Source: Octopus vulgaris
Lineage: Eukaryota
Assembly (NCBI GenBank): GCA_951406725.2
Contig: OX597819.1
Coordinates: 47,430,001-47,494,000 of the forward strand
Length of the DNA: 64,000 bases
Reading direction: 5' to 3'
The notes under the pieces are model-generated. The model saw only the letters and a list, made by a program, of their open reading frames with translations. It was not told the DNA's origin and ran no database searches. Shown here one piece after another: positions 6,313-51,119 of the stretch. Within the stretch, counting starts at the first letter, position 1; each line of letters starts with the position of its first letter. Made by a program: the position numbers and the translations under genes.

Positions 6313-6455
6313 AAGAAAAAGGAGGTAGACAGAATTTTGGATAATTATTTATTTAGCGCTTTCATCACATTTCAGTGATTCAGCTTATGAATCTCTAAAA
6401 CGAGATGAAAGCACTAAATAAATATATTATTCAAAATTTTGACTACCTCTTTTTA
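6313..6455. repeat. Inverted repeat (~70-bp arms) with degenerate hammerhead motifs
   Basis: gaggtagacagaattttggataat...ttcatcac vs gagatgaaagcactaaat...aaaattttgactacctc; GAAA-GCGC-UA motif. Confidence 0.8.
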
Positions 6456-6473
6456 CTTTTTATAAATTATGTG

Positions 6474-6506
<33 letters not shown>

Positions 6507-6508
<2 letters not shown>

Positions 6509-6795
6509 TTTACTCTTTTACTTGTTTCAGTCATTTGACTGCGGCCATGCTGGAGCACCACCTTTAGTCGAGCAAATCGACCCCGGGACTTATTCTTTGT
6601 AAGCCCAGCACTTATTCTATCGGTCTCTTTTTGCCGAACCGCTAGATGACAGGGACGTAAACACACCAGCATTGGTTGTCAAGCGATGGTGGGAGGGGAC
6701 AAACACAGACACACAAACATATACACACACATGCATATATATATATACACATATATACGACAGGCTTCTTTCAGTTTCCGTCTACCAAATCCACT
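6507..6795 (-). mobile_element. SINE family A, 5'-truncated
   Basis: Matches the 3' two-thirds of family A. Confidence 0.8.
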
Positions 6796-7394
6796 TTATG
6801 TACCTATTTATTGACATATAAGGATAGTTTAATATATATTTTGATAACCTTAACACTGATTATATTTTGCTTGCAAAGAATACTTTACCATTCACTTTTA
6901 TGTAATTTCAATTACAAATCACAGAGGAATTTAAACTTCCTAAACAAAACTTATATGATTTGAAAAGTATGTAATGCATTGTTTCATAACAGTGTCACCA
7001 GCATCTCTTTTAGCCTTTTATTTTTCTTTTCTTGAAAGCCAGCAAAAGAAATACAGACTGTTATTATGCTAATGTTCTTTATACTATAACAAGAAAGGGA
7101 AAAGAAACAGAGAGAGGGAGGGAGAGAAGGAGTTGCACCATTTCGTGACACATGCAGTCTGCTTGTAGTTTCTATGGGATTTACATAATGCTGACCAAAC
7201 CTGAAGCATGTTTTATAACTTAGGTTATATTTTGTTGTTGATGTTACAAAACAAGAACACGAAGCAGAACCATACTGAAATAATATAGCAAACACACATA
7301 CTACACATGTTTTTATAAATGTATTTCTAAGAATAGCATGGCAAAGTGTCCTTTATTGGCAGTGTTATGTTGAAAAGCACCAAAACTTGATTCC

Positions 7395-7447
<53 letters not shown>

Positions 7448-7448
<1 letters not shown>

Positions 7449-7755
7449 CATCATCATCATCATCGTTTAATGTCCACTGAAAGTGCTGTCATGGGTTGGA
7501 CGGTTTGACTGGGGACTGGTGAGCCACAAGCAGCACCAGGCTCCAGTCTGATCTAGCAAAGTTTCTACAGCTGGATGAACTTCCTAACGCCAACCACTAT
7601 GTGAGCATAGTGGGTGTTTTTACATGCTACCTGCACAGGAGCCAGTCTGGCGGCATTGGCAACAACCATGCTCAAATGTTGTTTTTCACATGCCACCAGC
7701 ACATGTGCCAGTAAGCCGAAGCCGGCAACGATCATGCTCGAATGGTGCTTTTCAT
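7448..7755 (-). mobile_element. RTE-LINE 3'UTR-related repeat family B with (GAT)n tail
   Basis: Shared with 29190, 34350, 43300, 46655, 50190; starts (cat)n-cgtttaa. Confidence 0.75.
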
Positions 7756-7854
7756 ATATATATATAGTAAATATTTGCTTGTTTTAATGGTATTGATAGT
7801 TAGGTTCCAATAAGAAGATTTCTCCAATAAAAATCACTTCCTAATGATTTAAAT

Positions 7855-8460
7855 AAAAAAAACCTAACACTCCTGGGGGAGAAACTAGAAATAGTTGATA
7901 GTTTCCGCTACCTAGGTGACCAAGTTAGTAGTGGGGGTGGATGCTCAGAGAGTGTTACCACTAGAATAAGAATAGTCTGGGCAAAGTTTAGAAAGCTCCT
8001 ACTCCTACTGGTGACAAAGGGTCTCTTGCTCAGAGTGAAAGGTAGATTGTACGACGCATGTGTGCGAACTGCCATGCTTCATGGTAGTGAAACATGGGCT
8101 GTGACTACAGAGGACATGCATAGGCTTGAAAGAAATGAAGCTAGCATGATCTGCTGGATGTGTAATGTCAGTGTGCATACATGACAGATTGTAAAGGCCC
8201 TGAGAGAAATGCTGGACATAAGCATTGGATGTGGCGTGCAAGAGAGATGTCTGCGCTGGTATGGTCATGTACTATGGATGGGTGAGGAGAGATGTGTGAA
8301 GAAGTGCCACTCCCAAACAGTTGAAGGAATCCGGGGTAGAGGTAGACCCAGGAAGATATGGGATGAGGTGGTCAAGCATGACCTTCGAACGTTGGGTCTC
8401 AAAGAGGCAATGACGAAAGACCGAGACCTCTGAAGATATGCTGTGACTGCGAAGACCCAA
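7855..8460 (+). mobile_element. RTE-clade LINE fragment (RT C-terminus), decayed
   Basis: LEIVDSFRYLG, GRLYDACVRTAMLHGSETW, LRWYGHV...VEGIRGRGRPRK motifs with stops. Confidence 0.9.
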
Positions 8461-8934
8461 CAAATAACGTGAGTTCATGGCTGTTTCCTGCACCAGCTTC
8501 ACATAGAAGCCCCAGTAGTGCTTATTGACAACAGATAGACCTGACTAGTGGACTCTGTTTCTTCCATAAGGACTGAAAGAACATGCACTCCAATCTGCTC
8601 AAGAGTTTCTTAAGACAAGGCATAGTGGTTAGGAGGGAGTAAATTGCTGAAGCAACATAGCTGTCAGCTATTTTTGCTTAGCTTCTCACTGACAATACCT
8701 TCTCAGTCTATTTTTGAGTGAGACTGGCCACTTTGCTCAAGCACAAGGCTTCAGAGAAGATATAATCTTTTGGTTTTCATTGATAAGATCCACTCACAAC
8801 TCTTTGTCCAGCCTGGGGCTATAATAAAAGATACTCGTCCAAGGTGCAACACAGTGAGACTGAACCTGACACCATGTGGTTAGGATGCAAACTTCTTAAT
8901 TACACAGCCATACCAATGCCTAACAAGGATAAAT

Positions 8935-9378
8935 GTTTCTAGTATTGGCACAAGGTCTGAAATATGAAGAGAGGGGTTAATCAATTATATTAGTATCAGT
9001 ACTTGACTGGTATCTTATTTTACTGACCCCTATGAGGATGAAAGGTTAAGTTGACCTCAGTAGGATTTGAACACAGAATACAAACAGTTCTAAATATCAC
9101 AAGGCATTTTGTCTAATACTGCAATGATTTTGCTAACAGATGATGATGATGATGATGATGACAATTCTTTCTACAATAGGTACAAAGTCTGAAATTTTTG
9201 GGGAGGGGGTCAGTTGATTACATCAACACCAGTACTCAGCTGGTACTTATTTTAGTGACCCTGAAAGGATGAAAAGCAAAGTCAGCCTTGGCAGAATTTG
9301 AACTTAGAATGTAAAGATGGACGAAATGCCACTAAGCATTTTGTCTGGTGTGATAACCATTCAGCCAGCTCATTGCTT
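8935..9378 (-). mobile_element. Two copies of SINE family C
   Basis: Reverse complement of gagttcaaattc..gaggtcgactttgcctttcatcc..aagtaccagt consensus. Confidence 0.7.
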
Positions 9379-9391
9379 TGATGATGATATC

Positions 9392-9430
<39 letters not shown>

Positions 9431-9442
9431 TCAAGATAATTA

Positions 9443-10056
9443 ATAATAAAATCAAAACCACTGACAAATGGCATAAACACCATCCAGAAGCTGTGACTGA
9501 GGGAGAAAATGTGTCGATTCTCTGGGACTTCCCCGTACATACTGACAAAACTATAAAAGCTAATAAACCGGATATTATTATAAAAGATCAGACAAAAAAG
9601 GTGTGTTTATTAATTGACACGAGTATTCCTTGCGATCACAATATAGCGTCAAAAGAATTTGACAAGATCAGTAAATATAAAGACTTGCTAATAGAAATTG
9701 AAAAAATGTGGCATCTCAAGGCGACTACAGTACCAGTGATTATAGGATCTCTAGGAATGATAAAAAAAAAGCTACTGAAACCTATTTGAAAATGATACCA
9801 GGCTTACAATCCCTACAGGAAGTGCAAAAAATCGTGTTAACTGGAACGACTCATGTACTGAGAAGAGCATTATCGCTGTGAAAACAACATCCATTCATGA
9901 ATTTTTTATTTATTAATTTTTTAAATACATATTTTACCTATGAATTTGCGTGTGTAATCTGGGAATGCATACAATGAGCTTTTCTGCCCTAGGTGTAGGG
10001 AAAAAACTCAGCAAGAAATGGAAGAAAATTTGAAGAAAGAAGGAAAAAAAAAAATA
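9443..10056 (+). mobile_element. R4/Dong-clade LINE 3' end (restriction-like endonuclease) inserted at an (AAT)n tract
   Basis: ORF 9493..9789 ILWDFPVHTDKTIKANKPDIII...LIDTSIP...KEFDKISKYKDL...VPVIIGSLG is an RLE domain; A-rich tail; (AAT)n at 9392-9430. Confidence 0.9.
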
Positions 10057-10061
10057 ATCAC

Positions 10062-10197
10062 CTAGTTTCTAGATCTTTCCATAACCATGTTTCTGAAAAG
10101 TAATCTAATATTCCAAATCTTTCTTCTGGCATGAAAGCGTCTTCTGCAACACTTGTATCAGTTGTCGTTGTTTCAGGAACATTATAAAACTGCTCCC
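10062..10197 (-). CDS. A2M/TEP-like exon (bait region end): WEQFYNVPETTTTDTSVAEDAFMPEERFGILDYFSETWLWKDLET
   Basis: 136 nt phase 1 to 2; YFSETWLW equals the conserved FPETW(L/I)W motif. Confidence 0.93.
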
Positions 10198-10306
10198 CTG
10201 AAATAAAACAACACTAAAAGATTATGAAATAGAAACAGTTATTCTTACTTATAGAAGTTTCCATTATGAATCTTAAACTAAAATAAATACAAAACAAATC
10301 ACTTAC

Positions 10307-10412
10307 ACAACACATCAGTTGCTTCTTTACTCGGAAGATCAACTGGGGCTTGTAGCCAAGTGCATGGTCGGGTTTCCAGGTTAATATCAGAGATAAGTGT
10401 TAGTCCAGAACT
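10307..10412 (-). CDS. A2M/TEP-like exon (start of bait region): SSGLTLISDINLETRPCTWLQAPVDLPSKEATDVL
   Basis: 106 nt phase 0 to 1, gtaagt donor; invertebrate A2M motif GL...SD..LETRPC. Confidence 0.93.

Positions 10413-10884: not shown

Positions 10885-10888
<4 letters not shown>

Positions 10889-10960
<72 letters not shown>
10889..10960. repeat. (GA)n microsatellite
   Basis: Direct. Confidence 0.98.
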
Positions 10961-10962
<2 letters not shown>

Positions 10963-11539: not shown

Positions 11540-11607
11540 CTTGAGAAATGAGTGGAAGAAAGCACCTGTGATTCCTGATGCAGGAAACATTAAGAATGAA
11601 GTGGATA
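11540..11607 (-). CDS. Candidate alternative (mutually exclusive or poison) 68-nt exon: VSTSFLMFPASGITGAFFHSFLK
   Basis: tttttttag acceptor, AAG|gtaagt donor, same length and phase as exon 15225-15292, open in that frame; no transcript evidence. Confidence 0.3.
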
Positions 11608-13465: not shown

Positions 13466-14762
13466 ATGTAGACACATACTATATCTACAGAAGACTAACT
13501 GCAGCTTCTTTCAGCTTAGGTCTACTTGATCTGGAATAGCACAGAGCTAAACAACAAGACAATGAAAAGTTGTCTCATAAATTTATGGTAAAAAATAATG
13601 TAGAAAACTCTTTCAAGAACTCGAAAGAAACCTGTTGAAACTGCATGTCAGAAATTCTTTTTTTTTTTTAGTAATAAAGAATACAATTCTAAATATCTAA
13701 AACAATTTGCTTGCCTACTTGCACAGCAGACTATTAATCTCACACCCCTTAGAGATTGAATGACACAATAGAAGCCATACACCGCCAGAAAGGTTTCATC
13801 CTTTATCATTATGATATTTAAAGAAAAGAAAAGTACAAGCATATATCTAAAAGAAGACAATTTTGTAAGTTATTTCTTATTCCTTATCTATGTGTTGTGT
13901 TATCATTGTAAATGAGAAAGTTATCATTTTGCGAACATGAAAATACATGAATGTAGATATGTTCGGAAGTATCAGCAGACGGTATACAATTCTAAATATC
14001 TTATGTCTAAGTACCAAGCTAGACTGACCTAATTCAACTGAACAACAAGAATTGATATATTCATTTCTCATAAACACTGTGTCAAAGACTGTGTTGTAAA
14101 TATTGCATCAGGTATAAGAATATCCAAATGTTTACAAACAGAATTGTAATTTTAATTACTTTTACATAATTATTCATCACTGATATATTTATGATAGGAA
14201 AATGTAGCATATCATCTAATTTATTACTTAATTAATCAGTTATTGTTTGACAGTAAGTAAATATTTTATTCCTAACATAAGCAAAAAATATTAGACTTAT
14301 AGACAAAAAAGATATATAATTTTATGATTTCTTGTCTTAAGTTCATTAGTGATATAAATATGATACAGCTTGTGTCAGTTTTTACAATACAAGTTTCAGT
14401 TGTTCAATCAACAGAACTGCTTTATTTTATTATAAACTTTGTGACTGAATATTCCACAGATACTTACATCCATAACATAATCCTCAGGTAGACTCAGCAT
14501 GATACTAATTATGATAAGAATTTTATCTACAGGCAAAATCCATAATACAGACTTCTACAAAGTACCGTCAACATAATTTTACTCTTATGGTTTGGGCTGA
14601 CTTGAGGCAATTGTAAAAGTCCCTTGCTCATCTAAGGTGCCAGGCAGTGAGGCATCATATTTGTGAAGGAGATTTCTTAGGCATTCAGTCAAGCCTGGGA
14701 TCCAATCAGAAATCAAAATTCCTGGAAATTTACCAGGAATCTAAAGCACTTACTCCGTTATT

Positions 14763-15170
14763 CTTTTACTCTTTTACTTGTTTCAGTCATTTAAGTGTGG
14801 CCATGCTGGAGCACCGACTTTATTCAAGCAAATCGACCCCAGGACTTATTCTTTGTAAGTCTAGTACTTATTCTATCGGTCTCTTTTGCCAAACCGCTAA
14901 GTTACGGGGACGTAAACACACCAGCATTGGTTATCAAGCGATGTTGGGGGGACAAATACAGACACACAAACACACACACATATATATATATATAATATAT
15001 ATATATACGACAGACTTCTTTCAGTTTCTGTCTACCAAATCCACTCACAAGGCTTTGGTCGGCCTGAGGCTATAGTAGAAGACACCTGCCCAACGTGCCA
15101 CGCAGTAGGACTGAACCCGGAACCATGTGGTTGGTAAGCAAGCTACATACCACACAGCCACTCCAGCACC
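14763..15170 (-). mobile_element. SINE family A
   Basis: Full-length match to family A. Confidence 0.85.
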
Positions 15171-19200: not shown

Positions 19201-20015
19201 CTACAAAATAAAAGGGATATATTCCTATAATTAAATTTTTTTTTTATGAGTGAAAGTTAAATAAATACTTTAAAAAAAATAATAAACAACAAAACATATC
19301 ATAAAGATAAAATTAATACAGAGTATATTTTCATTAAGCATGAATGAGGAAACCACTTCTTAATCATATTCATTAATTTATTTGTTTGTTTGGCATCCAG
19401 TTTTTAAAGTTGGAAGGGGAGTTATTTGAAGCAGGATTTTATGATTGGATGCTCTTTCTGTCACCAACCTTTAGATGTTTTTCAAATGAGGGATGTTTTT
19501 TTTTTCCCCAGAGATCTTTGAATGTACAAAGTTACTAGTCATAATATCAACAGAGGATGCCAACATCAAAACTATTCCACTCAAGTGGCAACATACAGGA
19601 AATATTAACACTCATGAACATTTACACACACATGATAGGCTTACTGTAGTTTATCAACCAAATTCACTCACAAAACTTTGGTTAGTTTGAGACAATAGAA
19701 GGTGCTGAGTCATGGGACTGAAACTTAAACCTTATGGTTGTGAAGCAAGCTTCTTATCCACACAACCATATATAATATGCTAATATGATATTTTAAATAC
19801 TATGCTAATGCTATGGTGTTTCCACACCAATAAATTAAAGCTGAGGTTGTAGATACAAAGACATTACTGCAACTCATGAAAATTACCTTACAGAATATAA
19901 ATCTGTCACTTTAGTATAATCGATATATATAGTCCGACATTTCTATGTAGATTTGTAATTTAATTATGTTTACATTATTAACAATTGATGGATATTTGTC
20001 TTCATCTTGTTTGTT

Positions 20016-20061
20016 AACACAACATTTTGGCTGATATACCCTCCAGCCTTCATCAGGTGTC
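20016..20061 (-). ncRNA. Minimal hammerhead, mirror copy with G12A mutation
   Basis: GACAC CUGAUGA A GGCUGG...UCAGCC AAAA UG UU GUGUU. Confidence 0.55.
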
Positions 20062-20110
20062 TTGGGGAAATTTCAAACCTGGGTTCTCATTCCTAAGGTA
20101 TTTTTCAATG

Positions 20111-20146
<36 letters not shown>

Positions 20147-20282
20147 TCACTGCCTGGAATCGAACTCGGAATCTTGGGGTTAATAGCCCGCACTCTTAAC
20201 CACTATGCCATATGCCTGTGGCTTAGTGGTTAAGAGCGCGGGCTACTAACCCCAAGATTCCGAGTTCGATTCCAGGCAGTGA

Positions 20283-20318
<36 letters not shown>

Positions 20319-20367
20319 CATTGAAAAATACCTTAGGAATGAGAACCCAGGTTCGAAATTTCCCCAA

Positions 20368-20413
20368 GATACCTGATGAAGGCTGGAGGGTATATCAGCC
20401 GAAATGTTGTGTT
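20368..20413 (+). ncRNA. Minimal type-I hammerhead ribozyme (slightly decayed)
   Basis: GAUAC CUGAUGA A GGCUGG-loop-UCAGCC GAAA UG UU GUGUU; stem III probably ACGU before CpG decay. Confidence 0.7.
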
Positions 20414-21076
20414 AACAACAAACAAGATAAGGACAAATATCTGTCAATTGTAAATAACGTAAATAATGTATATAATTCCTCACCTCTTAAATATAGAACT
20501 GTAATCATATTTACTCCAAGATCTTGAGAGTCAGTCATATTTGTCACTTTTTTCTTTGACTGAAAGTAATTCTCTCTTTTTTCTCTTCACATACTTTTAT
20601 GGTTTAAATGGAGTAAGTAGCTCCATGGCAATGCGTGTGTGTGTGTGAATAAATTTATGAGGAGACAAAGTTGAAATTTCATTCATAACACTGTTGCTAC
20701 TTCCTCTTTTCATTTTTCTATCGGTTTCAGTCACTGGACTATGGCCATGCTATGGCACAGCATTCAAGAGTTTTACTTGATTATATTAAACACAGGTCTC
20801 TATTTATCAGATAGATACAGTTATCTTTTGAATGCGCTGGTATACACAGAAGCAAATGCACACGTGCATGCACACAAATACACATATGGGCTTCCACACA
20901 GTTTCCATCAATCAAATTTCTTTCACAATGCATCGGCCAGCTTCAGGAAACCACATTAGAAGACACTTGCTGAAAGTATGACCAAATCTGGAACCACATG
21001 TCTGTGAAGGGAACAAACTTGTGCCTATCATAAGTAACTTGGAATTAATGAATTATAAAAATAGTTTCATGCTTAC

Positions 21077-21560: not shown

Positions 21561-21821
21561 TCTTCTCTATTTATGTTTTTTCTGCATGTGTTTTCAATGG
21601 AAAATTAATGGCCACAATTTCACCAGTCTTGGAGGAGGGACTGCAACAATCATAGATACATCCCTTTCAACTAGACTCAGAAGGTAAAAAAAAAAAAAAA
21701 AAGGCTGGGGCAGAAAATATCAATTCATAAGTTCTCACACTTTTCAAAACTCACCTTTATATATGTAAATATACACAAAGAATTAATTGCTATATGTTTA
21801 AAAGAAATACAGGGAACTTAC

Positions 21822-21994
21822 TTCATTTTTGAAACAGGAGTTAACTGAAAACTCTTGGTAATCATCAACTAATTCTCCATTATCGTCAACCAAGTAGACC
21901 AAAACATAACTGAGTGGAGACATCTCAGGGATGAGGTCGATATCAAATTCAAAATTAGCCATAAAGGGTGCTGAATCAGATCTTCGATTATTTT
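21822..21994 (-). CDS. A2M/TEP-like exon (MG5): ENNRRSDSAPFMANFEFDIDLIPEMSPLSYVLVYLVDDNGELVDDYQEFSVNSCFKNE
   Basis: 173 nt phase 1 to 0; hallmark 'M.P...LVY....GE.V.D...F.V..CF.N'. Confidence 0.95.
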
Positions 21995-22097
21995 CTGTAG
22001 AAAAATAAAATTTGTTGAAAGTAATTGATTAAACATTTTTATATTTCATGTATTTTATAAATGACAAATATAAATATATTTTTTAAAAGAGACATAC

Positions 22098-23072: not shown

Positions 23073-24461
23073 CTGAAATATTTTATAATGTTAATGGTCA
23101 CAGATGAAACAATCAGTTCATGCATATGTACGAGAAGTTATTACTTTCACTGACTAATAACTTGAGCCTGTTTTTACCTTCTTCATAGCTTGAATGAAAT
23201 ATGATGTTAATTAAATTTTATTATAATTTAATCTAGCTCATGTTTGATCAGCTTTAAATAGCAGCTAAATTGCTTTAAAATCACACCTTACTGTCATTAA
23301 AAGTGAAAAGATATACTGGACAATGTAATTTTAAATTTATAAAAATATACAACGAATATGATTCAAATAGACTGAGCATTAGTCTACTTGATCAGAGATG
23401 ACCTGGGGTTAAACAATAGCATTACATGAAAGCTTTGATAAAATACATATAGATACCAAATGAAGTAGATAGATACATACAAACAGATGCATATTAGATA
23501 CTGATAAGTACCTTATAAAGTATGCAGACAGCTAATTGAGGCAAAACAACAACAAATTTTTTTAAGTACAAGTGCAGTGAATGTATTAAGCTTGTAAGTA
23601 TAGGGTTAACAAATAAAAATGGATCACTAGGATTCAATATTTCATGCAAACATCTAAATTTGAAGACAACAAATTTTTTAAACCCATGAAAAAAAAAAAT
23701 GGATCATTCTAAACAAAATTTTTAAAATGTGTATATTGGTCCAACAAATTCTGATATTTATATATATTATCTGTATTTTGATTTTATCAAAGAATAAAAA
23801 CAGTGAGCTGGCAGAATCATTAGCATGTGAATTAAATGCTTAGTTGGCATTTCTACTGACTCTTTACATACTGAGTTCAAATTCTGGTGAGGTCATCTTT
23901 GCCTTTCATCCGTTTTCAGGCTTGATAAAAAAAAAAGTAACAGTCAAGTACTGAGGTCGATGTAATTGGTTTACCCTTTCCCGCTAAACTTGTTGGCATT
24001 GCACCAGACAGTTAACCTTGTGATGGACTGGTATCCCTTTCAGAAGTCAGTCTTGTACTCTCAGCCTAAATGCCTTGAAAATCCTCTGAGAAGCTTGGGC
24101 TTCAAGAGCATATAGGCTTAAGGCAGATTTATATTCTAAACACTAGCTTAATAGATGGTGTTTGGAACATAACTATGGCCCTAACACACCAATGACAAAG
24201 TTAGAGATTTTATTAAATCCCTTCAAATTGTTGAATATTTTCAAATTTAATTACAATATAGTAGTATTATATAAGCAGTATATTTTATTTGAAATATGGT
24301 CACAAAAAGGTTAAGTCTCATGCCCAAAGACTTAGAAACTTAGAATATGGAAATGAAATGAGCAGATATGTAGTACGAATGCCGTATCCAATTGGCAGTT
24401 TACTCTTACATTTAAGAAAACATTTTGAAAATTAAATAAGAATAGAACACAATATTGTTAC

Positions 24462-24635
24462 CTGAAGTACAAATTCTTCAGTATATTTATCAAAGTGGTC
24501 AATAGTAAAATATATTTCTCCTTTCTCATTGGAAGTGAAAATACCAGAAAGTTCAATGTCATTGACATAGTCAACAGCTGTGACTTCTATAACTTCCCCT
24601 GCAGCAATACTATTGTCAGGTTTGGAAACTAAAAC
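24462..24635 (-). CDS. A2M/TEP-like exon (MG4): VLVSKPDNSIAAGEVIEVTAVDYVNDIELSGIFTSNEKGEIYFTIDHFDKYTEEFVLQ
   Basis: ttcag|GTT acceptor, CAG|gtaac donor, 174 nt phase 0 to 0; contained in ORF 24432..24731. Confidence 0.93.
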
Positions 24636-25030
24636 CTGAAAATAAAATAAAATATATATAATTTTAAAGAAAGCTATAAAATGGATGTAACTATTTTGTA
24701 ATATGACCATGTGTTTAATGGGATGTAACATTTAACATAGTTTATAAAAAAATCATTTCTTCCTCTAGTCCTTTTGATAATGTGAAGGTGAGATTTGATG
24801 ACTAATTATAGAACTACCAACCATTTTTGGCTTCCTTTCAGAATTACTACAGTTCTGTCCAACTTTCTGAAGCAATTTCTCTTAAAACTGTTTCCTATGT
24901 TTTCTTATTCATTATTTTTATTTACTTTTTCCACGGAGTTTTTGGTTTTATAACCAACCCCACATATATAAGAAATGTAATGCTATGTATTGCTAAGTCA
25001 CTAGCTGTGACCGTAGATGACTAGCTGAAG

Positions 25031-26579: not shown

Positions 26580-26610
26580 CATCATAGCCAGCTACTTTGC
26601 TTATATATAT

Positions 26611-27030
26611 TACTCTTTACTCTTTTACTTGTTTCAGTCATTTGACTGCGGCCATGCTGGAGCACCACCTTTAGTAAAGTAAATCGACCTCAGGACTTAT
26701 TCTTTGTAAGCCTAGTACTTATTCTATCAGTCTCTTTTGCTGAACCACTATGTTACGAGGATGTAAACACACCAACATCGGTTGTCAAGCAATGGTTGGG
26801 GGACAAACACAGACACACAAACATATATATACACACATGTATATATATATATATACACACATATATACGACGGGCTTCTTTCAGTTTCCATCTACTAAAT
26901 CCACTCACAAGGCTTTGGTTGGCCCAAGGCTATAGTAGAAGACACTTGCCCAAGGTGCCACGCAGTGGGAATGAACCCGGAACCATGTGGTTGGTAAGCA
27001 AGCTACTTACCACACAGCCACTCCTGCACC
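26611..27030 (-). mobile_element. SINE family A
   Basis: Full-length match. Confidence 0.85.
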
Positions 27031-27075
27031 TATATTATACATAAAATAGAGCAATTATTTTATGTATAATTGCTC

Positions 27076-27289
27076 TATATTACTAGTTTTGGCACATAAC
27101 TGGTCTGAATGTTACGGACAATTTCATTCTGACTATTTATATTTGGTAATGTTGACAACTCTTCAGACATGCTGGCCAGAAGCACTTCCAGCCAGTATAT
27201 CTAAAGAGTCATCAACATTGCAAGTGTAATAATTGGCATGAAAGTGTTGATAACATTTACATCAGTTATATGCTAAAATCAGTAATATA
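27076..27289. repeat. Old diverged inverted repeat with hammerhead-like cores
   Basis: tatattactagttttggcacataactg vs cagttatatgctaaaatcagtaatata; minus strand AUGU CUGAAGA...GAAA...GUA ACAU at 27109-27170. Confidence 0.65.
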
Positions 27290-27724
27290 CTACTGGACAA
27301 TATAAATACAAACATGCACACATATATTGCAGAGGGTTACCAGTTCATCGGAACATAGTCAGGCCACTTAGAATAAAGGACTGAAAATATGAAGTCTGAG
27401 TGTCAATATGCTTTATCGAAAACAATTAGTCTAACAAAATACATATTCTGAATCACCCAAAAGTTCATCAGTCCCTGATAAGCTCACATGCAATAGAGTA
27501 TATGTATTTTTAGGGCTCATTATTTTGGATAAAATACATCACATTTAATTGCAGCTTTCTCCACTAGTCTAACCCAGACATTTGTCTTTCAGTAAATCAG
27601 GCTGAGATGAATGTTTGTATGCACCAACATGCACTTCCTCATTCATCATACAGGGTTGGCCAAAAGTCATCTGACAGTAAATCAAAACCCATATTTCAGA
27701 TTTCAGAACATTTATAAAGAGAAG

Positions 27725-27772
27725 GTCTTACAGCTGTTTCTGGGATATTTTATATATCCCTTCATCAGAGAC
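27725..27772 (-). ncRNA. Minimal type-I hammerhead ribozyme with intact core
   Basis: GUCU CUGAUGA A GGGAUAU-AUAAA-AUAUCCC A GAAA CAGCUG UA AGAC: stem I GUCU/AGAC, 7-bp stem II, palindromic stem III ACAGCUGU, GUA cleavage triplet. Confidence 0.85.
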
Positions 27773-28014
27773 GGTGTGAGAAGATGGTTAAGCAATAGTT
27801 ATTCTAGAGAAGATATGAAATAGAGAGTGAAGTGGAAGAATGAAAACAGACGTGAGATATGCACGGATATTGTATCTGCAGTACCATTCTGCTTAAATAA
27901 TGGAACTGCAGATACAATATCCGTGCATATCTCATGTCTGTTTTCGTTCCTCCACTTCACTCTCTATTTCATATCCTCTCTAGAATAACTATTGCTTAAC
28001 CTTTTTCTCACACA

Positions 28015-28062
28015 GTCTCCAATGAAGAGATATATAAAATATCCTGGAAACAGCTGTAAGAT
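28015..28062 (+). ncRNA. Mirror hammerhead copy, core mutated (CCAAUGA)
   Basis: GUCU CCAAUGA A GAGAUAU...AUAUCCU G GAAA CAGCUG UA AGAU. Confidence 0.5.
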
Positions 28063-28272
28063 CTCTTTATAAATGTTCTGAAATCTTCCTCAGCCTTGGA
28101 TTTTTATCTCATTCAGTTAATTTTTTATATATATGCATACCAATATATGACCTATGTTGGACTCCTCATTTATATAATCACCGAACCTGGAACTTAACTA
28201 TGGTCTGTCTATAGCACTTACTCAGCCTTACCTGACACCTTTGGGCCTTCTTGACACCATTACCTCTCATAA

Positions 28273-28615: not shown

Positions 28616-28870
28616 CTAGAAAATAAATTTAGATTAAAATTTTTTTTAGAAATGATAATTTGTGTGTTTTCTGTTTTGAGGAAAGTATAATTCATTTATA
28701 ATACAACTGCGCAATACAAATTTGATCAAGCAACATACATATGAACAAATTAAAGTTAAAATTTTAAGCCTGTCTCAAGTTCAAAGGCTCATTAAACAAG
28801 AGCTTATCCTAGTTTTTGTGGAGTCCAATTGACAGCTTATACATACACACACACACACATACATACATAC

Positions 28871-29135
28871 ATATAAAAGATTGAGGTGGAAATAACACAG
28901 AAGTAAGTCTAAGACATTTCAATTTAAAAGGGAATTTAATAAAAAAATTATACAAAGAAAATATTACGGGTTTCGATGTATTTCATCAACTATCAGTAAA
29001 AATTTTTCTAAAAATTTGAAGTAAAAACAGTTTTATCTTCTGTCTGGAGGGTCAAGAACATTTTTATTAAATTCCTTCTTAAATTGAAATGTCTTAGACT
29101 TACTTCTGCACCATTTCCATCTCCATCTTTTATAT
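28871..29135. repeat. Inverted repeat (~75-bp arms, ~115-bp spacer) with degenerate hammerhead-like motif in spacer
   Basis: cagaagtaagtctaagacatttcaatttaa vs ttaaattgaaatgtcttagacttacttctg. Confidence 0.8.
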
Positions 29136-29189
29136 ATAAATATTTGATTTGTATAGATCTCTAATCTTTTTTCAACTATATATATATAT

Positions 29190-29954: not shown

Positions 29955-31430
29955 AAGTCCTACACAAACCACAATGTGGATTTCAACCATCCAGAGGGAC
30001 AACTGACATGATCTTTTGTACTCGACAAATACAAGAAAAGAGTAGAGTACAACAAAAACCTATTTTGTTTTCTATGACCTCAAAAGGCCCTTGATACTGT
30101 CCCAAGGCCTGCAATTTGGAAGGTCTTCTGGCTGCTTCAATCAGTTCATTTCCCTAGTACAGGGATTATATGATGGTATGACTGGAACCATCTTCCATCA
30201 AAACCAACTGTCTGAAGACTTACCCATCACTGGAGGATTGAAACAAGGATGCGTTTTTGCTCTGACACTCTTCTCCCAGTACCTTGCAGCAGTGTTTCAT
30301 GAACTGCCTTCAGATGATCCAGAAATCAACATTAGGTACTGATATGATGGGGGATGTTTCAACCTTGCCAGATTGAAGTCACAAAGACTGACCAGGAAGC
30401 AAAAACAAAAAACCAAAAAAAAAACACTGAACTTCAGTATGCTGATGATAATGCAGCAGTCTGCCACTCCAGTGAAAAACTTCAACAATCGGTGAATAAC
30501 TTCACCAATGTTTTCATTCGGTTTGACCTAAAAGTCAACATCAAAAAGACAAAAATCCTGGCACAACCCGTTCTGAGTCAGGAAACTCCAGATCTCAACA
30601 TTACCTTCTCAGAGATGCCACTGGAGAAAGTTGACCATATTTCATACCTAAAAAGTTTGCTTTCAAACAAGTGCACATCGGAAAAGGATGTAGAGAACTG
30701 ATTAAGAGTGGCTCACACCACGTTTGGTGGAGTCGCAAAAAGAGGGTTTAAGAACAAAGATCTGAACCACCAAACAAAATTGAGTGTCTACCAAGTAGCT
30801 GTGAAATGTGGACTCTTTACTGAAGTGATGTCAAAAAACTAGAGTGATTTCACCAACAGAAGCTCCTCTCTATTATGAATATCAAATGGAATGATTATGT
30901 GACTGATGTCTCCATTTTGGAGAGAACGAAAAGCTGTAGCATCAAGGCTACCATCTTGAAACATCATCTGAGATGGGCGGGCTATGTAGCAAGAGTGACA
31001 GAGACCAGTCTGCCTCGTCAAATTTTATATGGTGAACTTTCCACTGGAAGAAGACGCCATGGCTGTCCCCTTCGTCAATACAAGGACCAACTGAAGCAAA
31101 GCTTAAAACTGACTGGAATCGATCCCAAAGCTTGGGACATTGAAGCTCCAGACAGGCCAGGCTGGCATCATTCCATCTCCACTGTGACAGATTATTTTGT
31201 AGCTGAACGACAGAGGAAAGAAGAAGAGACATGGCAAGAAAGAAAATGGAGGCTGCAACAACCAAAGCCTCCCCCACGGATCCCTTGTGAACTTTGCAGT
31301 AGACACCTCCATGCAAGAACCAGCCTCATTAGCCATCAGAAGCATAAACATGGACAGAGGGGAAGAAGAAATCAAGAAGAAGCCAAATAAACTATCGGAC
31401 AGATGATAAAACACTGCCACTGCTGATGTG
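29955..31430 (+). mobile_element. RTE/BovB-like LINE, 5'-truncated and decayed
   Basis: GLKQGCVFALTLF, ELQYADD, LKVNIKKTKIL, LRWAGYVARV...LPRQILYGEL..GRR, C-terminal C2H2 CELCSR...LISHQKH. Confidence 0.92.
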
Positions 31431-34784: not shown

Positions 34785-36056
34785 GTCATCCCATAAATAA
34801 TGCAGTTCTTTTTCAATTGTATGAACTAAGAGTCTGAGGGGGAGGGAATAAACTTCCTGCATCAACTTGCTATAAAAACAGGTAGTAATTTTATCTTGTA
34901 CTTCTTCTTAGTGCAAGTTTTGAAGAGTGCAGTTTGATTTTAACAGTTATTTTTTCAAAGCTATAATGGAAGTGACAAAGGAGCACATTTGGCATCTTTT
35001 GTTTTATGAGTTCAATAAAGGTAACAATGGAATGGAAAGTGTGAGGAATATTAATGCAGTATATGGAGATTGGACAATAAGCGCAAGCCAGTGTCAACAG
35101 TGGTTCCAGAAACTCCTAGCCAGAAACTATAGCCTAAAAGATTATCCTTGTCCTGGAAGATTTGTAGACCTTGACAAGGACATCCTGCAAAACCTGGTGG
35201 AACAAAATCTCATCATAACTGTTAAGAAACTAGCAGAGAAGCTTGGATTTGGTCATTCAAACATTCATCAACACCTGCGTGCCATTGGAAAAGTCAAATT
35301 GAGTCAATGGGTTCCTCACAAACTTTCTGAGTCTAATTGCATGTAGAGAGTGAATGTGCGCTCTTCTTTGCAGCCACTTCTCATGGATTAACCTTTTTTT
35401 GGACTGAATAGTGACTAGAGACAAGAAATGGGTTTTCTATAGAAATGTCATGTGCCAAAGACAGTGGGTAGGGAAAAGAGCAACACCAGCACCCCAGCTA
35501 AAGGTTTTTACCCATGTAAGGTGTTGTTATCTGTTTGGTGGGATATGACAGGTTTAGTCCACTTTGAACTTTTAAACCCAAACCAAACAATAACAAAGGA
35601 GATCTACAGTGAGCATCTTGAGTGGCTTAAGTCAGCATTAGAAGAAAAATGACCATCTTTGGTTTCAAGACAAAAGGTGTTCTTCTATCAGGATAATGCT
35701 CAGCTACATACAATGAGGATGACATTCCAAAGGCTGGAGCAGTTTGATTGGGAAATGCTGCCCCACCCAACATATTCACCAGACATTGCCCCATCTGATT
35801 ATCATTTATTCAGCAGACTTCAAAATCATTTGGACAGAAAAAACATGAATTCTGTAGATGAGGTCAGAACTGGAGGAGTATTTTTCATTATGGACAAGTG
35901 AATTTTGGAAGAGGGGCCTTGCAAGTCTGCTAGATAGATGGAAGAGCATTGTAGAAAATGGAGAGTATATTTTAGATTAAAAAAGAACATTGTTTATCTT
36001 AATTTTGAAAAATAAAAGAAGTATAAAAAAACTGCATTATTTATGGGATGACCCAA
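34781..36056 (+). mobile_element. Full-length decayed mariner transposon (~1.28 kb) in a (TA)n tract
   Basis: TIRs ttgggtcatcccataaataatgcagtt / aactgcattatttatgggatgacccaa. Confidence 0.95.
34966..35980 (+). pseudogene. Mariner transposase pseudogene
   Basis: WVPHKL, VLLSVWWD..G.VHFELL, QDNA, HPTYSPDIAPSDYHLF motifs broken by stops and frameshifts. Confidence 0.93.
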
Positions 36057-36057
36057 C

Positions 36058-45011: not shown

Positions 45012-45936
45012 TACACAAACTTACACACACATACATGATGTATATGGCCATGTGTGAGCAATATTTTTGTCTGTGAATGAGTGATTGAATGTGTGTGTGT
45101 GTGTGTGTGTGTGTTCATATGTACACGTGTGTATGCATATGAACACACACACACATGCACGCACTGGTTTGAATCAGTATCTGTGTGAGTGAGTGTATAC
45201 ACATCCATCAAATAGAACAGCTCTGTAAACAGATATATCACCAAAAGGAGATTATAATGTTAACCCGGAGAGGGAAGGAGGTAATGTTAAAATCAGAAAT
45301 AAAACAAAACCAATAAATAAGTAAATGAAATAACAATAATAAATGAATAAATAAATCACACAAAAAAGTACTTAAGAAAGGATGTAACAAAAAAAAAAGA
45401 AAAGAAAAATGAAGGGGCACCAGAGAAGTAAAGACGTGAAAGATTCAAAAGAAGTAAAAACAAGAAACTACCATGGAAGACAAAAGCTTATTAAAGAGAA
45501 ATTTATCACTATTTAGGTAATATATTTTTGGTGTATAAAGAAGGATAAGTTCTTATATACTGTCAAATGGATTGTTTGTTTAGTTTGAAAGCAAAGAAGG
45601 AAAAAAAATGTTCTCACCACACACAAAAAAAAAAAATAATCAAAAACAAACGTGTAACAAAGAAACAACAACCCAAAGACTTATAATGATGAGGAGAGAT
45701 ACTTGAAGGAAAATTAGGCTCAATGTTAAGCTAAATGAATGTTGTAAATAATAGAATTTGTATTAACTGACTTTTTTTTTTCCTCTTAATTTTTAAGTGA
45801 CAGGGTGGATGTGACTGTATATCATAAAAACATTTCTAAGGAATGAACAAATACCTGTCACTGTGTGTGTTCGTGGGTGTGAATGTATGCTAACACACAT
45901 ACTCTCTCTCTGTCTCTCTCTCTCTATATATATAGA

Positions 45937-46318
45937 GGCGCAGGAGTGGCTGTGTGGTAAGTAGCTTACTTACCAACCACATGGTTCCAGGTTCAGTCCC
46001 ACTGCGTGGCACCTTGGGCAAGTGTCTTCTACTATAGTCTCAGACCGACCAAAGCCTTGTGAGTGGATTTGGTAGACGGAAACTGAAAGAAGCCCGTTGT
46101 ATACATGTATATGTGTTTGTGTGTCTGTGCTTGTCCCTCCAACATCCCTTGACAACCAATGTTGGTGTGTCTACGTCCCCGTAACTTAGCAGTTCGGCAA
46201 AAAGGGTCCAATAGAATAAGTACTAGGCTTACAAACAATAAGTCCTGGGGTAAATTTGTTCGACTAAAGGCAGTGCTCCAGCATGGCCACAGTCAAATGA
46301 CTGAAAACAAGTAAAAGA
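45937..46318 (+). mobile_element. SINE family A (plus orientation)
   Basis: Head ggcgcaggagtggctgtgtggtaag...ggttcagtccc, full length. Confidence 0.85.
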
Positions 46319-47062
46319 ATATATATATATATATATAGACTATTTTATTAAAGCCCTCCAAAAAGTAGATTATTCTGCATTATCAAAACTGACAAACAGT
46401 CACTAAGTAACAGTTTGTGAATTTTTTCAGCTTTAATAAAATAGGACTTTACTCTACTTTTGGTAGTCTAGTACTATTTTTTATGCACACACATATATTA
46501 AAAATGGGGAAGGCTGGTTTATGGGATTACCTTAGGTTTCCCATCCACAAAGGGTTTAGCTTTAAGGCATATCATCAGGTCCCAAAAACCTGTTGTCCCA
46601 TGACCTCTTAAAAGTATCTATCTATCTATATATTATATATATATATATACATATGGTTGGTGTTAGGAAGGGCATCCAGCTGTAGAAACCTTGCCAGATC
46701 AGACTGGTGCCTAGGCAGCCTCCCGGCTTGCCAATCCTCAGTCAAACCATCCAACCCATGCCAGCATGGAAAGCAGATGTTAAATGATGACGATTATATG
46801 TGCAAGTGTGACAGTGTGATAAGAAGTTTGCTTCCCAACCATATGATTCCAAGTTCAATCCCACTGCATGGTACCTTAGACAAGTGTCTTCGACTATAAC
46901 GTTAGGCTAAATAAGGCCTTGTGAGTGGATCTTGTACACAGAAACTGAAGGTTTATTTATGCCCCTGTAACCTAGTGGTTTGGCAAAAGAGACAGATAGA
47001 ATAAGTACCAGGCTTTAAAAAAAAGTGCTGGGTGCAATTTGTTTGACTAAAATGCTCCTTAA

Positions 47063-47282
47063 CCCTTTAGCATTCAGATTATTCTGTCAAATGTAATGCT
47101 TATTTATTTACATTGTTTTAAATTAATCAAGTATTATCTCATAGCTTTGAAATTTCAATGATGTAATGGTTTAGTTTTAGAATGACATTGTAGGGTAGGT
47201 ATGACAGGCTGGATCTGGCTAGTTTGAACATAAAATGGGTATAATATTTGGGTCAGATATGGCTGATTTAAATGCTAAAGGG
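47063..47282. mobile_element. piggyBac-type MITE with TTAA TSD, nested in a SINE
   Basis: TTAA-ccctttagcatt ... aatgctaaaggg-TTAA. Confidence 0.9.
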
Positions 47283-47314
47283 TTAAGGCAGTGCCCCGGC
47301 ATGGCAACCACTGT

Positions 47315-48290
47315 CTATACATGATTATAGTGACAATTTTAGTGTACAGGTAGGTGTTCACCAAGGCTCGGTCCTCAGCCACTTCCTATTTATCTTCATC
47401 CTCCAGGTCATAACAGAGGAATTTAAGACTGGAAGCCCATAGGAACTATTATATACTGATGATCTTGCCCTCATAGCAGAATCTGTAAGAGGACTAGAAA
47501 AATTCCAGATGTTGAAATAAAACCTGGAATCAAAAGGTCTTAAAGTTAACTTAGTAAAGACCAGGGTCTTAGTAAGCAAAAAATCAGATAGGACCTGTCA
47601 GGTAAATGACTCTGCTTGATATGTAGGAAAGTTGTAGGCAAGAATTCTATTTGACATACCCAGTGCAAGCTATGGACATACAAGATGTGCAGCGGAATAG
47701 CAGAAAGATTAACAGAGAATGTAGTATTTGTATGTGGAAGATATGCAGGAGTCATAGTGACCACAGCTACATGGGGAACTGATTTCATCAAATGCCCTTG
47801 AGGCTCTCTAGAAGTAGTAGATAATTTCTGTTACCTAGGTGAGCTAATTAGCAGTGGTGGAGGAGGTATCGAAAGTGTAATTGTTAGAATAAGAACAGGA
47901 TGGAAAATGTTCAGAGAGCTTTTACCTGTTGGCAACCAAAGGTCTCTCTCAGTGAAAGGAAAATTGTATGATACATGTGTATGAACAGCAATGATACATG
48001 GTAGTGAGATGTGTGTCCTGAATGTAGAAGACACATGAGGACTAGAGAGGAATGAAGCTAGTATGCTACGCTTGATGTTCAGAGTGCATGTGCAACAAAG
48101 CACTAGTATATTGAGAGAAAAGTTAGGTGTAAGGGGAATTAAACGCAGAGTGAAAGAGAGAAAACTATGCTGGTTTTGTCATGTGATGCATATGGATGAG
48201 GACAGTTGCTTAAAGAAGTGCTGATCACTTAAAGTGGATGGAAGTTGTAGAAGAGGGAGACCCAGGAAAACATGGGATGAAGTATTGAAT
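47315..48290 (+). mobile_element. RTE-clade LINE fragment (RT, PHD-like insert, C-terminus), decayed
   Basis: GVHQGSVLS, LLYTDDLAL, KGLKVNLVKT, LEVVDNFCYLG, GRPRKTWDEV motifs. Confidence 0.9.
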
Positions 48291-48319
48291 AGTTTTGAGA
48301 TTTTATTGTCACTAGCATT

Positions 48320-48657
48320 TTGTAAAAGCATCCATATTATTCCAAAATCTCTCGTGGAAGCGTCATCCAACCAAAATGGAAATATATGGGAAACTACCAC
48401 CTGTGTCATCTCTTGTGAAAGGTAGGAGAGTCCAGTTTGCTGGACATTGTTGTAGAGCTGAAAACGAGGCAATTTCTACTCTTCTCCTCTGGAAGCCATC
48501 TACTCACAATACCAGAGGGCACACACTTTCCTACCCTGATGTAATCTCCAGACATCCAGCAACAGGACCTCTGTAATGCCATGATGGACTGTGAAGTCTG
48601 GCGTAGCATGGTAAATTCCATTGTCTCGACCACGGTCGAACAATGATGAATGATGAT
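48320..48657 (+). mobile_element. Different RTE/RTEX-like LINE 3' end
   Basis: IYGKLPPVSSLVKGRRVQFAGHCCRA..E.IS.LLLWKP; (tga)n tail. Confidence 0.75.
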
Positions 48658-49057
48658 TCCAAACATCTGCATTGAGTGTATATATGCTCAGGATCTTTCT
48701 AACATGTCAAGCATTTCTGAAATTACTATGTTAGTTTAGTTCCCAGGTTAGCTTTGTACCTGGAGGCCATCCTGGCTTTTCTCAGACAGTTTATACATAG
48801 GTAGGACTACATTCTCAAATGTTTTATGTGTTTTTTTAAAGAAAGTAGGATATGGTTTAAAGGATATTAAATTGCGATTTATAGCAGCTTAATCTCCCTA
48901 AAACTACATCCCACCTTCTTTATAACAGTTCAGGTGAGATATGTTGTGACCACACTAGTCTGTAGTTTATCATAACATCCAGATTTTCAAGTAATGTTTT
49001 TTTTTTCATACACTGCTTATGATTCTTAAAAGTGAAAAAATCAAGGTTTAATAGCCA

Positions 49058-49467
49058 TTTACTCTTTTACTCATTTACTTGTTTCAGTCATTTGACTGTG
49101 GCCATGCTGGAACACCACCTTTAGTCGAGCAAATCGACCCCAGGACTTATTCTTTGTAAGCCTAGTACTTATTCTATCGGTCTCTTTTGCCGAACCGCCA
49201 CGCTATGAGGATGTAAACACACCAGCATCAGTTGTCAAGCGATGTTGGGGGGAGGACAAACACAGACACACTGACATATACACACACGCACACACATATA
49301 TATATGACAGGATTCTTTCAGTTTCTGTCCACCAAATCCACTCACACGGCTTTGGTCGGCCTAGGGCTATAGTAGAAGACACTTGCCCAAGGTGCCACAC
49401 AGTGGGACTGAACCTGGAACCATAAGGTTCATAAGCAAGCTACTTACCACACAGCCACTCCTATGCC
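49058..49467 (-). mobile_element. SINE family A
   Basis: Full-length match. Confidence 0.85.
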
Positions 49468-50784
49468 TTATTAATTTTTAAAATTTTTTTTTGTGAAACT
49501 ATTACTTTGCAATATGATACTTCAAATATCACTTTCCAGTTAACCACCAAAGTTTTCATTCTTTGCTGAAGTTGATTGCTGACAGGTTACTTTTACCTGT
49601 TGATCTTACTGAAGTAAATAGGTTTTATGGACTTTATAACAAGGGCAAGAACAACTGTGAAAAAATGAACAGAAGTGAGATTTATGAGACTGATATACAT
49701 TGAGATGACAGATCAGATATGTAACATTGACTGATCACCTGTTAATGTAGCCTTGCAGCCACCTAATTAATGTTTCAGGTATCACTTTAAATTCATGTTT
49801 TTTATAATAATTACTGGTATCCTTATATATTACTATATTTTATATCTTATATATAAAGAATAATATGTTACATGTATGTATGTATGTATATTATTGTAAT
49901 TATCAGCTTAGTAAATAAATAAATAAGTTAACATACTAAGTCTAAAAGTTGATGAACCACCTATTGTTCTCCTCCATTTTCTTATTGCTATATAAATTAA
50001 TGGTAAAATATCTCTTTACCTTCACCCATTTAGTACACTAGGTAATGTAATAGCAATGCAATAAAAAACACTTGTGTATTAATAATTGGGTATTCTACCA
50101 GCAATATATTGGATAGATATTATCCCTCAGTGGGTTGGATTCACAACCTCTAACTTTCTTGGAGTTATATATATATATATATATATATCGGTGACATGTA
50201 AAAAGCACCAACCGATCATGGTCGTTTGCCAGCCTACTCTGGCCCCTGTGCCAGTGGCACGTAAAAAGCACCCACTACACTCACGGAGTGGTTGGCGTTA
50301 GGAAGGGCATCCAGCCGTAGAAACATTGCCAGATCAGACTGGGCCTGGTGTAGCCTTCTGCCTTCTCAGACCCCAGTTGAACCGTCCAACCCATGCCAGC
50401 ATGGAAAGCGGATGCTAAACGATGATGATGATATTTGGTTAAAATGGCTTATTGATGTGTTTTGTTCCTTTTTTTTTTTTACGCTGACAAGATGATTGCA
50501 TTGTTTTACATCATTTTCATTTCCTCTGGAATAATCTAAATGCTTTTTTCAAAACATATGTTGAAAGTATAAATGATTTGAATAACACCTGCATTTGACT
50601 CCATCTCTTAATTTATCCATGTCATACAAAAACAATTCATTTAACCCTGGAATTTCTATTTTTATATGCAGGGTGTAATAGTTTTGGCACTTATATGAAT
50701 TTTTGCTACCCTGGTAACTATTTATTTATTTATCCTTGTTATTTGTACACATTGAAAAAATATATATACATTTATATGTATATA

Positions 50785-50836
<52 letters not shown>

Positions 50837-50934
50837 TAAAACGGTAAGATAACAAAAGAAAGAAAGAGACCTCAATATTATGTAAATAGAGGAAATTTAT
50901 CTATAAAATAATATGTTACATTACTCGATAGTCA

Positions 50935-50997
50935 AGATAAAACTCTGAGTTTCAGATGTCGAAGTGGGAATCCACAACGCCATCTCTTCGGTTATCT
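50935..50997 (-). ncRNA. Minimal hammerhead (U4C core variant)
   Basis: AGAUAA CCGAAGA GAUGGCG...CGACAUC U GAAA CUCAGAG UU UUAUCU; stem I AGAUAA/UUAUCU, stem III ACUC-A-GAGU. Confidence 0.7.
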
Positions 50998-51013
50998 GGC
51001 TATTTAAATAGCC

Positions 51014-51074
51014 AGATAACTGAAGAGATGGCGTTGTGGATTCCCACTTCGGCATCTGAAACTCAGTTTTATCT
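51014..51074 (+). ncRNA. Minimal hammerhead, mirror copy with canonical CUGAAGA core and 2-nt deletion in stem III
   Basis: AGAUAA CUGAAGA GAUGGCG...CGGCAUC U GAAA CUCAG UU UUAUCU. Confidence 0.7.
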
Positions 51075-51119
51075 TGACTATCGAGTAATGTAACATTATT
51101 TTATATATATATATATAAA

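Follow-up and report, generated by a model that had tools for sequence, protein, structure and literature searches.

Hammerhead-carrying palindromes in introns of Octopus vulgaris are head-to-head pairs of Penelope-like element 3' ends, probably formed by twin priming

Six palindromes in introns of an alpha-2-macroglobulin-family gene

The DNA analysed here (the window) is a 64,000-nucleotide (nt) stretch of the Octopus vulgaris genome, taken from contig OX597819.1 (G000:C6:47430001-47494000) of an assembly of 2.8 Gb in 227 contigs, ~30 of which are chromosome-scale. The window contains a minus-strand gene of the alpha-2-macroglobulin family, with exons near 54850 (weak), 24500, 21850 and 5400, and with Pfam matches to A2M_BRD and A2M above the cut-off, to MG4 just below it and, weakly, to MG2. 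A first-pass annotation made from the letters alone had described six inverted repeats here as intronic palindromes carrying outward-facing hammerhead ribozymes, and they are indeed intronic because they are placed between exons of this gene. Self-comparison of the window recovered all six, with arm identities of 71-93% (Table 1). These palindromes are real and non-random, and their base form is the known footprint of Penelope-like elements (PLEs). In this study, we found that such palindromes consist of two PLE 3' ends set down in one event, with a tail on one arm and with either arm the longer. Each is probably the product of a single insertion, in which two primed complementary DNAs (cDNAs) gave a head-to-head pair of 5'-truncated copies.

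The limits first given to the inverted repeats miss a tail of 20-60 nt on one arm in five of the six elements. All motifs in the window read outward, as first described. The claim that both arms of five elements carry a hammerhead motif was too generous: read from the sequence, exact CUGANGA and GAAA boxes are present in four of the ten claimed arms (2R, 3L, 4L and 6R), a strict descriptor that also allows C at position 4 (C4) matched three arms (4L, 6L and 6R), and most arms are decayed. Both arms of element 1 are cut within the first core box. The sixth element (element 5 in our numbering along the window) had been credited with a degenerate motif in its spacer; the motif is there, albeit in the short-end arm, and is a copy of the U3-A8 core variant of its relatives from which a few bases have been lost. 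C4 occurs in most relatives of families 4 and 6.

Hammerhead motifs in a genome sample

In a fixed-step sample of 120 stretches of 10 kb (1.2 Mb), a descriptor demanding a palindromic stem III found 35 hammerhead motifs, versus 0-2 in each of eight dinucleotide shuffles, which bears out an excess over shuffled controls. Twenty of the motifs (10 events) were head-to-head with an inverted partner upstream, none was tail-to-tail and 15 were solo; seven of the 35 sit in one tandem array. Palindromes with intact motifs thus occur at ~1 per 120 kb, a lower bound, and the density of one per 10 kb first proposed is a local figure that includes decayed copies. Core boxes, stems I and II and the palindromic stem III recur together above chance. 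Stem sequences vary between families while their pairing is kept, C3-G8 and U3-A8 cores are both present, and some hammerheads have an extra base on the 3' side of stem II. A relaxed scan made earlier for outward versus inward motifs in 128 loosely defined inverted repeats gave a weak result (13 vs 3 at score 7) because many of them were pairs of other repeats, and the fixed-step sample took its place.

An Rfam scan of the window returned no hammerhead family among the matches listed (150 of 167), with hairpin-type matches below gathering, and on four loci, including the retrozyme locus L091 described below, no hammerhead reached the gathering score. Further U3-A8 hammerhead families, some of them head-to-head, were seen at L113, L135, L144, L318, L322, L334 and L348. 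The locus L136:8302-8716 is a palindrome of palindromes with outer arms 100% identical, and is built from yet another hammerhead family, in which stem II is very short.

Coding parents of the families

Four of the six palindromes are 3' ends of protein-coding PLEs, as families 2, 3, 5 and 6 run upstream into reverse transcriptase (RT) and/or GIY-YIG coding sequence. The open reading frame (ORF) upstream of family 6 has RT motifs, a Cys-rich linker and a GIY-YIG-like end; its open frame of 395 amino acids matches Pfam GIY-YIG weakly (E 0.03, below cut-off), and its Atlas neighbours at 0.92-0.98 carry HTH_animal, GIY-YIG and RVT_1. At L182, nearly the whole ORF lies between the tailed arm and the short arm, and both L051 and L182 contain the junction of pseudo-long terminal repeat (pLTR) and ORF as a partial tandem, tail and then ORF start. 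Family 2 has RT and GIY-YIG frames upstream, and the same order of pLTR, tail and ORF start at L270, L272 and L284. Coding PLEs sharing the 3' pLTR are clear for these two families. For family 3, three loci (3 of 31 arm contexts) have Neptune-like pieces lying upstream of the arm by 162-316 nt, and for family 5 a single decayed locus has a VIY..YIG piece. The clade labels Neptune-type (Cys-rich linker) and Penelope/Poseidon-type denote resemblance in motifs. First-look searches gave 2931, 1707, 2944, 713, 108 and 53 candidates for families 2, 6, 4, 5, 1 and 3, figures that are not copy numbers.

The description of these elements as non-autonomous, ORF-less families is therefore not supported for families 2, 3, 5 and 6, and fits in part families 1 and 4, which yielded no ORF in the loci examined, together with the SINE-like (short interspersed element-like) copies of family 2. 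The Penelope-like link, the minimal type-I hammerheads and the (TA)n targets were all borne out.

Anatomy of the insertions

In the loci fetched for the six families, 90 arm pairs were head-to-head and two were tail-to-tail. With one pair taken per locus and the window copies removed, exactly one arm was tailed in 73 of 81 pairs, compared with a mean of 41.8 and a maximum of 59 in 20,000 permutations, and the threshold-free difference between arm ends (37 nt vs 25) was above every one of 20,000 permutations. The tails measure ~25-65 nt in these families. Among abutting pairs, the arm reaching >20 nt further 5' was the short-end arm in 12 and the tailed arm in 12.

Centres and arm lengths vary between copies; many centres overlap by 1-8 bases, and others contain extra sequence. 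Since the centres differ between copies, the palindrome is itself an insertion product. Family 2 mostly has targets other than (TA)n; in this family, a direct repeat matching at 10 of 11 bases bounds 20 of 34 pairs, versus a mean of 0.7 and a maximum of 2 in mismatched family-2 pairings (30), and the whole palindrome lies within one target duplication of ~11-12 bp.

These features bear on two other explanations. Two independent insertions, or a later DNA rearrangement of hairpin or MITE-like (miniature inverted-repeat transposable element-like) kind, might have set copies back to back in a genome as repeat-dense as this one, where many low-identity inverted pairs of other repeats are found. 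Independent insertions, however, should occur in both orientations and with tail classes at random, and a single target duplication bounds both arms; together with the polarity, this largely refutes such an origin, for which we see hardly any chance. The first-pass annotation had favoured ORF-less PLE- or retrozyme-like families that are processed by their hammerheads and move as whole palindromes. Such families would suit the lack of an ORF in families 1 and 4 and the short, tRNA-headed form of most family-2 copies, and a true ORF-less tandem retrozyme of the same geometry exists at L091. Nevertheless, propagation as palindromes is not supported, because the centres vary, one target duplication bounds the whole and the hammerheads are on opposite strands; with four families continuing into coding sequence and arm starts near the predicted hammerhead cut at about chance level (see below), we consider this account very unlikely.

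Two primed cDNAs as a mechanism

How PLEs form head-to-head insertions was left open by the study of rotifer elements (PMC3846280). In the mechanism that we propose, the protein of the element, presumably as a dimer, would make a staggered cut in both DNA strands, ~11-12 bp apart, and one cDNA would be primed on each strand, each from one of a pair of RT start sites that mark off the tail. Both cDNAs would run toward the 5' end of the element, stop early and end up joined, in many cases at a few bases common to both. Both arms would then read outward because each cDNA begins at the 3' end of the element, and the hammerhead would be carried along because it lies 45-160 nt from the RT start sites. 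For an anole PLE, it has been reported that the protein, a predicted dimer, cuts both strands and extends both, and that RT starts at two tail-defining sites, with no strand difference in start site (PMC11167929).

Self-priming, in which one template (antisense RNA, as for rotifer Penelope, or a folded-back cDNA) is copied on itself to give the inverted arm, has been put forward for the same head-to-head structure (PMC3846280). The overlaps of 1-8 bases at many centres would suit it, as would a short hairpin just before the tRNA-like piece of family 2. Yet under self-priming one arm should be contained within the other, and 12 of the 24 informative pairs contradict this, with a tail on one arm while the other arm extends 45-561 nt further 5'. 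A fold-back copy cannot hold a tail that is absent from its template. The 73 one-tailed pairs among 81, with either arm the longer, therefore fit two separately primed cDNAs and not self-priming, which we judge unlikely. The copy statistics thus separate twin priming from self-priming, and provide a prediction for an existing in vitro system.

Several points weigh against the twin-priming reading. The loci fetched were top-scoring matches rather than a random draw, and 8 of the 81 pairs fall outside the tail/short class. Tail thresholds were chosen after the end histograms had been viewed, and BLAST ends blur in (TA)n. Target duplications cannot be recognised within (TA)n targets; families 5 and 6 gave no excess, nor did families 1 and 4, and the window copy of family 2 has no clear target duplication. 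Finally, tblastn upstream of 33 and 49 arm contexts found no parent ORF for families 1 and 4, respectively, the family-4 search having left out 337 first-look candidates that extend >600 nt upstream.

Hammerheads as passengers

The hammerheads are passengers in these palindromes. As they lie on opposite strands, one transcript would fold into a long hairpin, and the two could not form a dimer in cis; the predicted hairpin of each palindrome in the host transcript has 79-94% of its bases paired. The inserted palindromes are likely dead, with the antisense arm pairing with the sense arm and the core bases decayed. Hammerhead cleavage as the source of 5' ends was rejected, since the predicted cut lies within 3 nt of the start in just 2 of 35 short arms, which is about chance. 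No pile-up of ends at the cut was seen in genomic 5' ends or in unstranded RNA reads, neither of which gauges activity. The conserved architecture across families makes it likely that the hammerheads are active in the parent RNA, and for PAc, a Poseidon element of Anolis carolinensis, hammerhead cleavage was dispensable for insertion in vitro (PMC11167929). Insertions of this kind place many long hairpins in introns, and these may be substrates for adenosine-to-inosine editing.

In the first 600 kb of the sample, palindromes that lack a hammerhead and end in (TA)n on one side and in a tail on the opposite side were noted by eye (L116:7503-7697 and 7936-8763, L135:6481-6663, L141:42-295, L145:764-945, L149:5804-5977 and 6276-6632). 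They are either PLE insertions that stop short of the ribozyme or members of hammerhead-less PLE families, and since their ends are the same, the insertion geometry does not need a ribozyme inside.

A tRNA-like head in family 2

The pLTR of family 2 starts with a tRNA-derived piece, which in a relative matches positions 6-65 of the Rfam tRNA model with 14.5 bits, below gathering; ARAGORN at a lowered threshold gave noise. The commonest A- and B-box sequences of the family (18 copies matched) fit the box consensus. Of 30 copies that were picked by their 3' part, 18 have their start no more than 12 nt from the tRNA-like +1, three go further, four start inside the head and five are without it. 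In the fixed-step sample, eight arms cover the head and one continues upstream. A structural block to RT would fall at the 3' edge of the tRNA-like head, not at its 5' edge, so that starts at the 5' edge look like an RNA 5' end. We therefore lean slightly toward the view that short family-2 cDNAs run off the 5' end of an RNA starting at the tRNA-like piece. Alternatively, RNase P cleavage may make this 5' end.

Many family-2 copies are SINE-like, having a tRNA-derived head and a defined 5' end at the head. A free-standing SINE was rejected because the head belongs to the 3' untranslated region (UTR)/pLTR of a coding element. At L278, L285 and L289 (G000:C3, 140.42-140.46 Mb), one family-2 insertion occurs together with its flanks in three nearly identical copies spaced ~16-17 kb apart, a local tandem duplication.

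The sequence suggests that RNA polymerase III transcribes family 2. Among 179 aligned pieces, no TTTT is common to more than four copies anywhere in 2.68 kb (median cover 24). Within the 283-nt unit alone its absence is not significant, as 45% of shuffles are without any, and k-mer shuffles over whole copies gave P values of 0.02-0.47. Synonymous-codon shuffles gave a probability of no TTTT of 0.004 for L270, whose single run occurs in 1 of 20 copies, of 0.04-0.05 for two other copies and of 0.16-0.18 for two shorter ones; three of these five copies are not significant, and the copies are not independent. A Neptune-type ORF, the sole ORF compared and not of Penelope/Poseidon type, has 15 TTTT runs in 1.8 kb. 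In three unstranded RNA runs, which carry the species label but may come from another species, family 2 is found mostly inside other transcripts, where its own start or end does not stand out.

A wider account, which we offer tentatively and think rather doubtful, would make family 2 a coding Penelope that took over a tRNA gene as the promoter in its pLTR, that RNA polymerase III transcribes over its full length and that has been purged of TTTT over 2.7 kb. Long coding insertions would then stem from the same RNA as tens of thousands of SINE-like palindromes with tRNA piece and hammerhead, the latter arising from the upstream pLTR-ORF junction, and with the one-tail rule and L091, twin priming would be general for PLEs and animal retrozymes. 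A tRNA-derived promoter in a coding PLE, if true, would illustrate one way in which a PLE can give rise to a SINE-like family, and would differ from the initiator/downstream promoter element-type promoter of Drosophila Penelope (PMC2377424).

A tandem retrozyme of the same geometry

A young tandem retrozyme with a 359-nt unit and a canonical type-I hammerhead lies at L091:2097-4766 (G000:C1, 20.0 Mb). It is inserted in (TA)n as a head-to-head array with two motifs on the minus and five on the plus strand; only one arm bears a tail, of ~40 nt, and the arms share a few bases where they meet at the centre. Among the elements considered here, tandem monomers of 150-400 nt that lack an ORF and each contain a hammerhead are found only at L091, and not in the window. 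L317 holds a diverged relative, and reads and contigs show that another repeat shares the L091 tail stretch. The three RNA runs left the L091 hammerhead uncovered.

Retrozymes have been tied to PLEs by phylogeny (bioRxiv 10.64898/2026.07.22.740005; PMC7229834), and the geometry of L091, a single locus, lends structural support to the idea that PLEs drive the spread of retrozymes in animals. Like the non-LTR retrozymes of these two reports, our elements have type I hammerheads and a link to PLE pLTRs, and L091 is a typical member. Unlike them, the six window elements are neither tandem nor ORF-less units.

Comparison with known elements

Inverted pLTRs that stand head to head, are tailed on one side and have a short target duplication are on record (PMC3846280, PMC8557442, PMC2377424). 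The octopus palindromes resemble Pen2/Pen3 of Adineta vaga (PMC3846280) and Penelope of Drosophila virilis (PMC2377424; overview in PMC8557442), in which an inverted, 5'-truncated copy stands head to head, with a tail on one arm and microsatellite targets. The tails of those insertions of endonuclease-containing PLEs are 30-40 nt and the target duplications 8-10 bp. Unlike the rotifer and Drosophila cases, the octopus families consist mostly of pLTR-only pairs in thousands of copies, a number sufficient for testing the mechanism, with the somewhat different tail and duplication lengths given above, and in contrast to the self-priming proposed in PMC3846280, our data speak for two primed cDNAs.

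In 2014, Cervera and de la Pena described minimal PLE hammerheads, including the U3-A8 variant and many families per genome, and also recorded motif pairs in Schistosoma mansoni whose members lie on opposite strands at a distance of 100-700 bp (PMC4209133). The motifs found here resemble theirs in being type I, in the palindromic 15.2-16.2/stem III and in the extra base beside stem II, and differ in that families 4 and 6 are mostly C4 and in that the extra base is sometimes 3' of stem II. A U4C change lowers hammerhead activity in vitro (PMC3088659). In the available text of PMC4209133, polarity and its link to the tail are not analysed; both were examined here.

As in PAc, the tail probably lies between two RT start sites and the targets are AT-rich, although the PAc results, as far as available, carry no link to head-to-head insertions (PMC11167929). 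Family 2 is like the SINE-like SM-alpha/Sj-alpha repeats of Schistosoma (PMC6765202) in that an RNA polymerase III-type promoter, putative in family 2, adjoins the hammerhead; those are non-coding tandem repeats, whereas the tRNA-like piece of family 2 stands in the pLTR/3' UTR of an RT and GIY-YIG element. Two other reports (PMC6962438, PMC8969392) provide context only. The literature covered was partial, without Repbase or Dfam, which may hold these families, and without the supplements of PMC4209133, PMC8557442 and PMC11167929, and within it we found nothing on octopus palindromes, PLE twin priming or a tRNA-promoter PLE. The base observation is a known PLE trait, to which this study adds a copy-level test of mechanism and a tRNA-headed coding family.

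Other features of the window

Table 1. Palindromes, their arms and host exon frames, in window coordinates
Feature	Position	Strand	Remark
Inverted repeat 1	6303-6466		
Inverted repeat 2	19859-20573		
Inverted repeat 3	27058-27312		
Inverted repeat 4	27698-28086		
Inverted repeat 5	28855-29152		
Inverted repeat 6	50895-51112		
Family 1 tailed arm	6279-6396	-	5'-truncated within first hammerhead core box
Family 1 short-end arm	6384-6467	+	core box 1 incomplete, then (TA)n
Family 2 short-end arm	19945-20229	-	Penelope/Poseidon-type PLE 3' end; hammerhead G12 mutated
Family 2 tailed arm	20208-20501	+	tRNA-like head, (AAT)n, hammerhead, tail
Family 2 tRNA-derived piece	20212-20286	+	A-box-like 20219-20229, B-box-like 20264-20273; Rfam tRNA match on relative
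Family 2 hammerhead	20373-20408	+	minimal type I
Family 3 arm	27055-27183	-	old, Neptune-type; core boxes intact, stems decayed
Family 3 second arm	27185-27308	+	decayed hammerhead
Family 4 short arm	27698-27923	-	intact hammerhead 27729-27768
Family 4 tailed arm	27864-28209	+	hammerhead G5 mutated
Family 5 short-end arm	28868-29061	-	deleted U3-A8 hammerhead near 28962-28990 (spacer of the first-pass annotation)
Family 5 tailed arm	29061-29176	+	truncated 3' of hammerhead
Family 6 tailed arm	50834-51008	-	Neptune-type PLE 3' end; C4 hammerhead 50941-50991; ends in (TA)n
Family 6 short-end arm	51003-51112	+	hammerhead 51020-51068
Host exon frame (A2M domain)	5248-5676	-	3'-most host exon found; Pfam E 1.4e-12
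Host exon frame (A2M_BRD)	21801-22028	-	Pfam E 4.2e-7
Host exon frame (MG4)	24435-24731	-	Pfam E 3.3e-5
Probable host exon frame (MG2, weak)	54765-54977	-	Pfam E 0.11

The window also holds at least seven copies of an abundant dispersed repeat of ~400 bp, probably a SINE, in both orientations and with 80-89% identity (5680-6260, 6500-6795, 14760-15170, 26610-27040, 45930-46340, 49060-49490 and 60000-60430). Decayed frames at 7831-8433, 9430-9789, 30046-31390, 34924-35901 and 51248-52214 presumably represent fragments of non-LTR reverse transcriptase and Tc1/mariner transposase, which they resemble. Two small hairpins (3024-3091 and 4527-4587) have arms of 81-84% identity and no hammerhead match, and an isolated short 3' fragment of family 4 lies at 53031-53103 on the minus strand.

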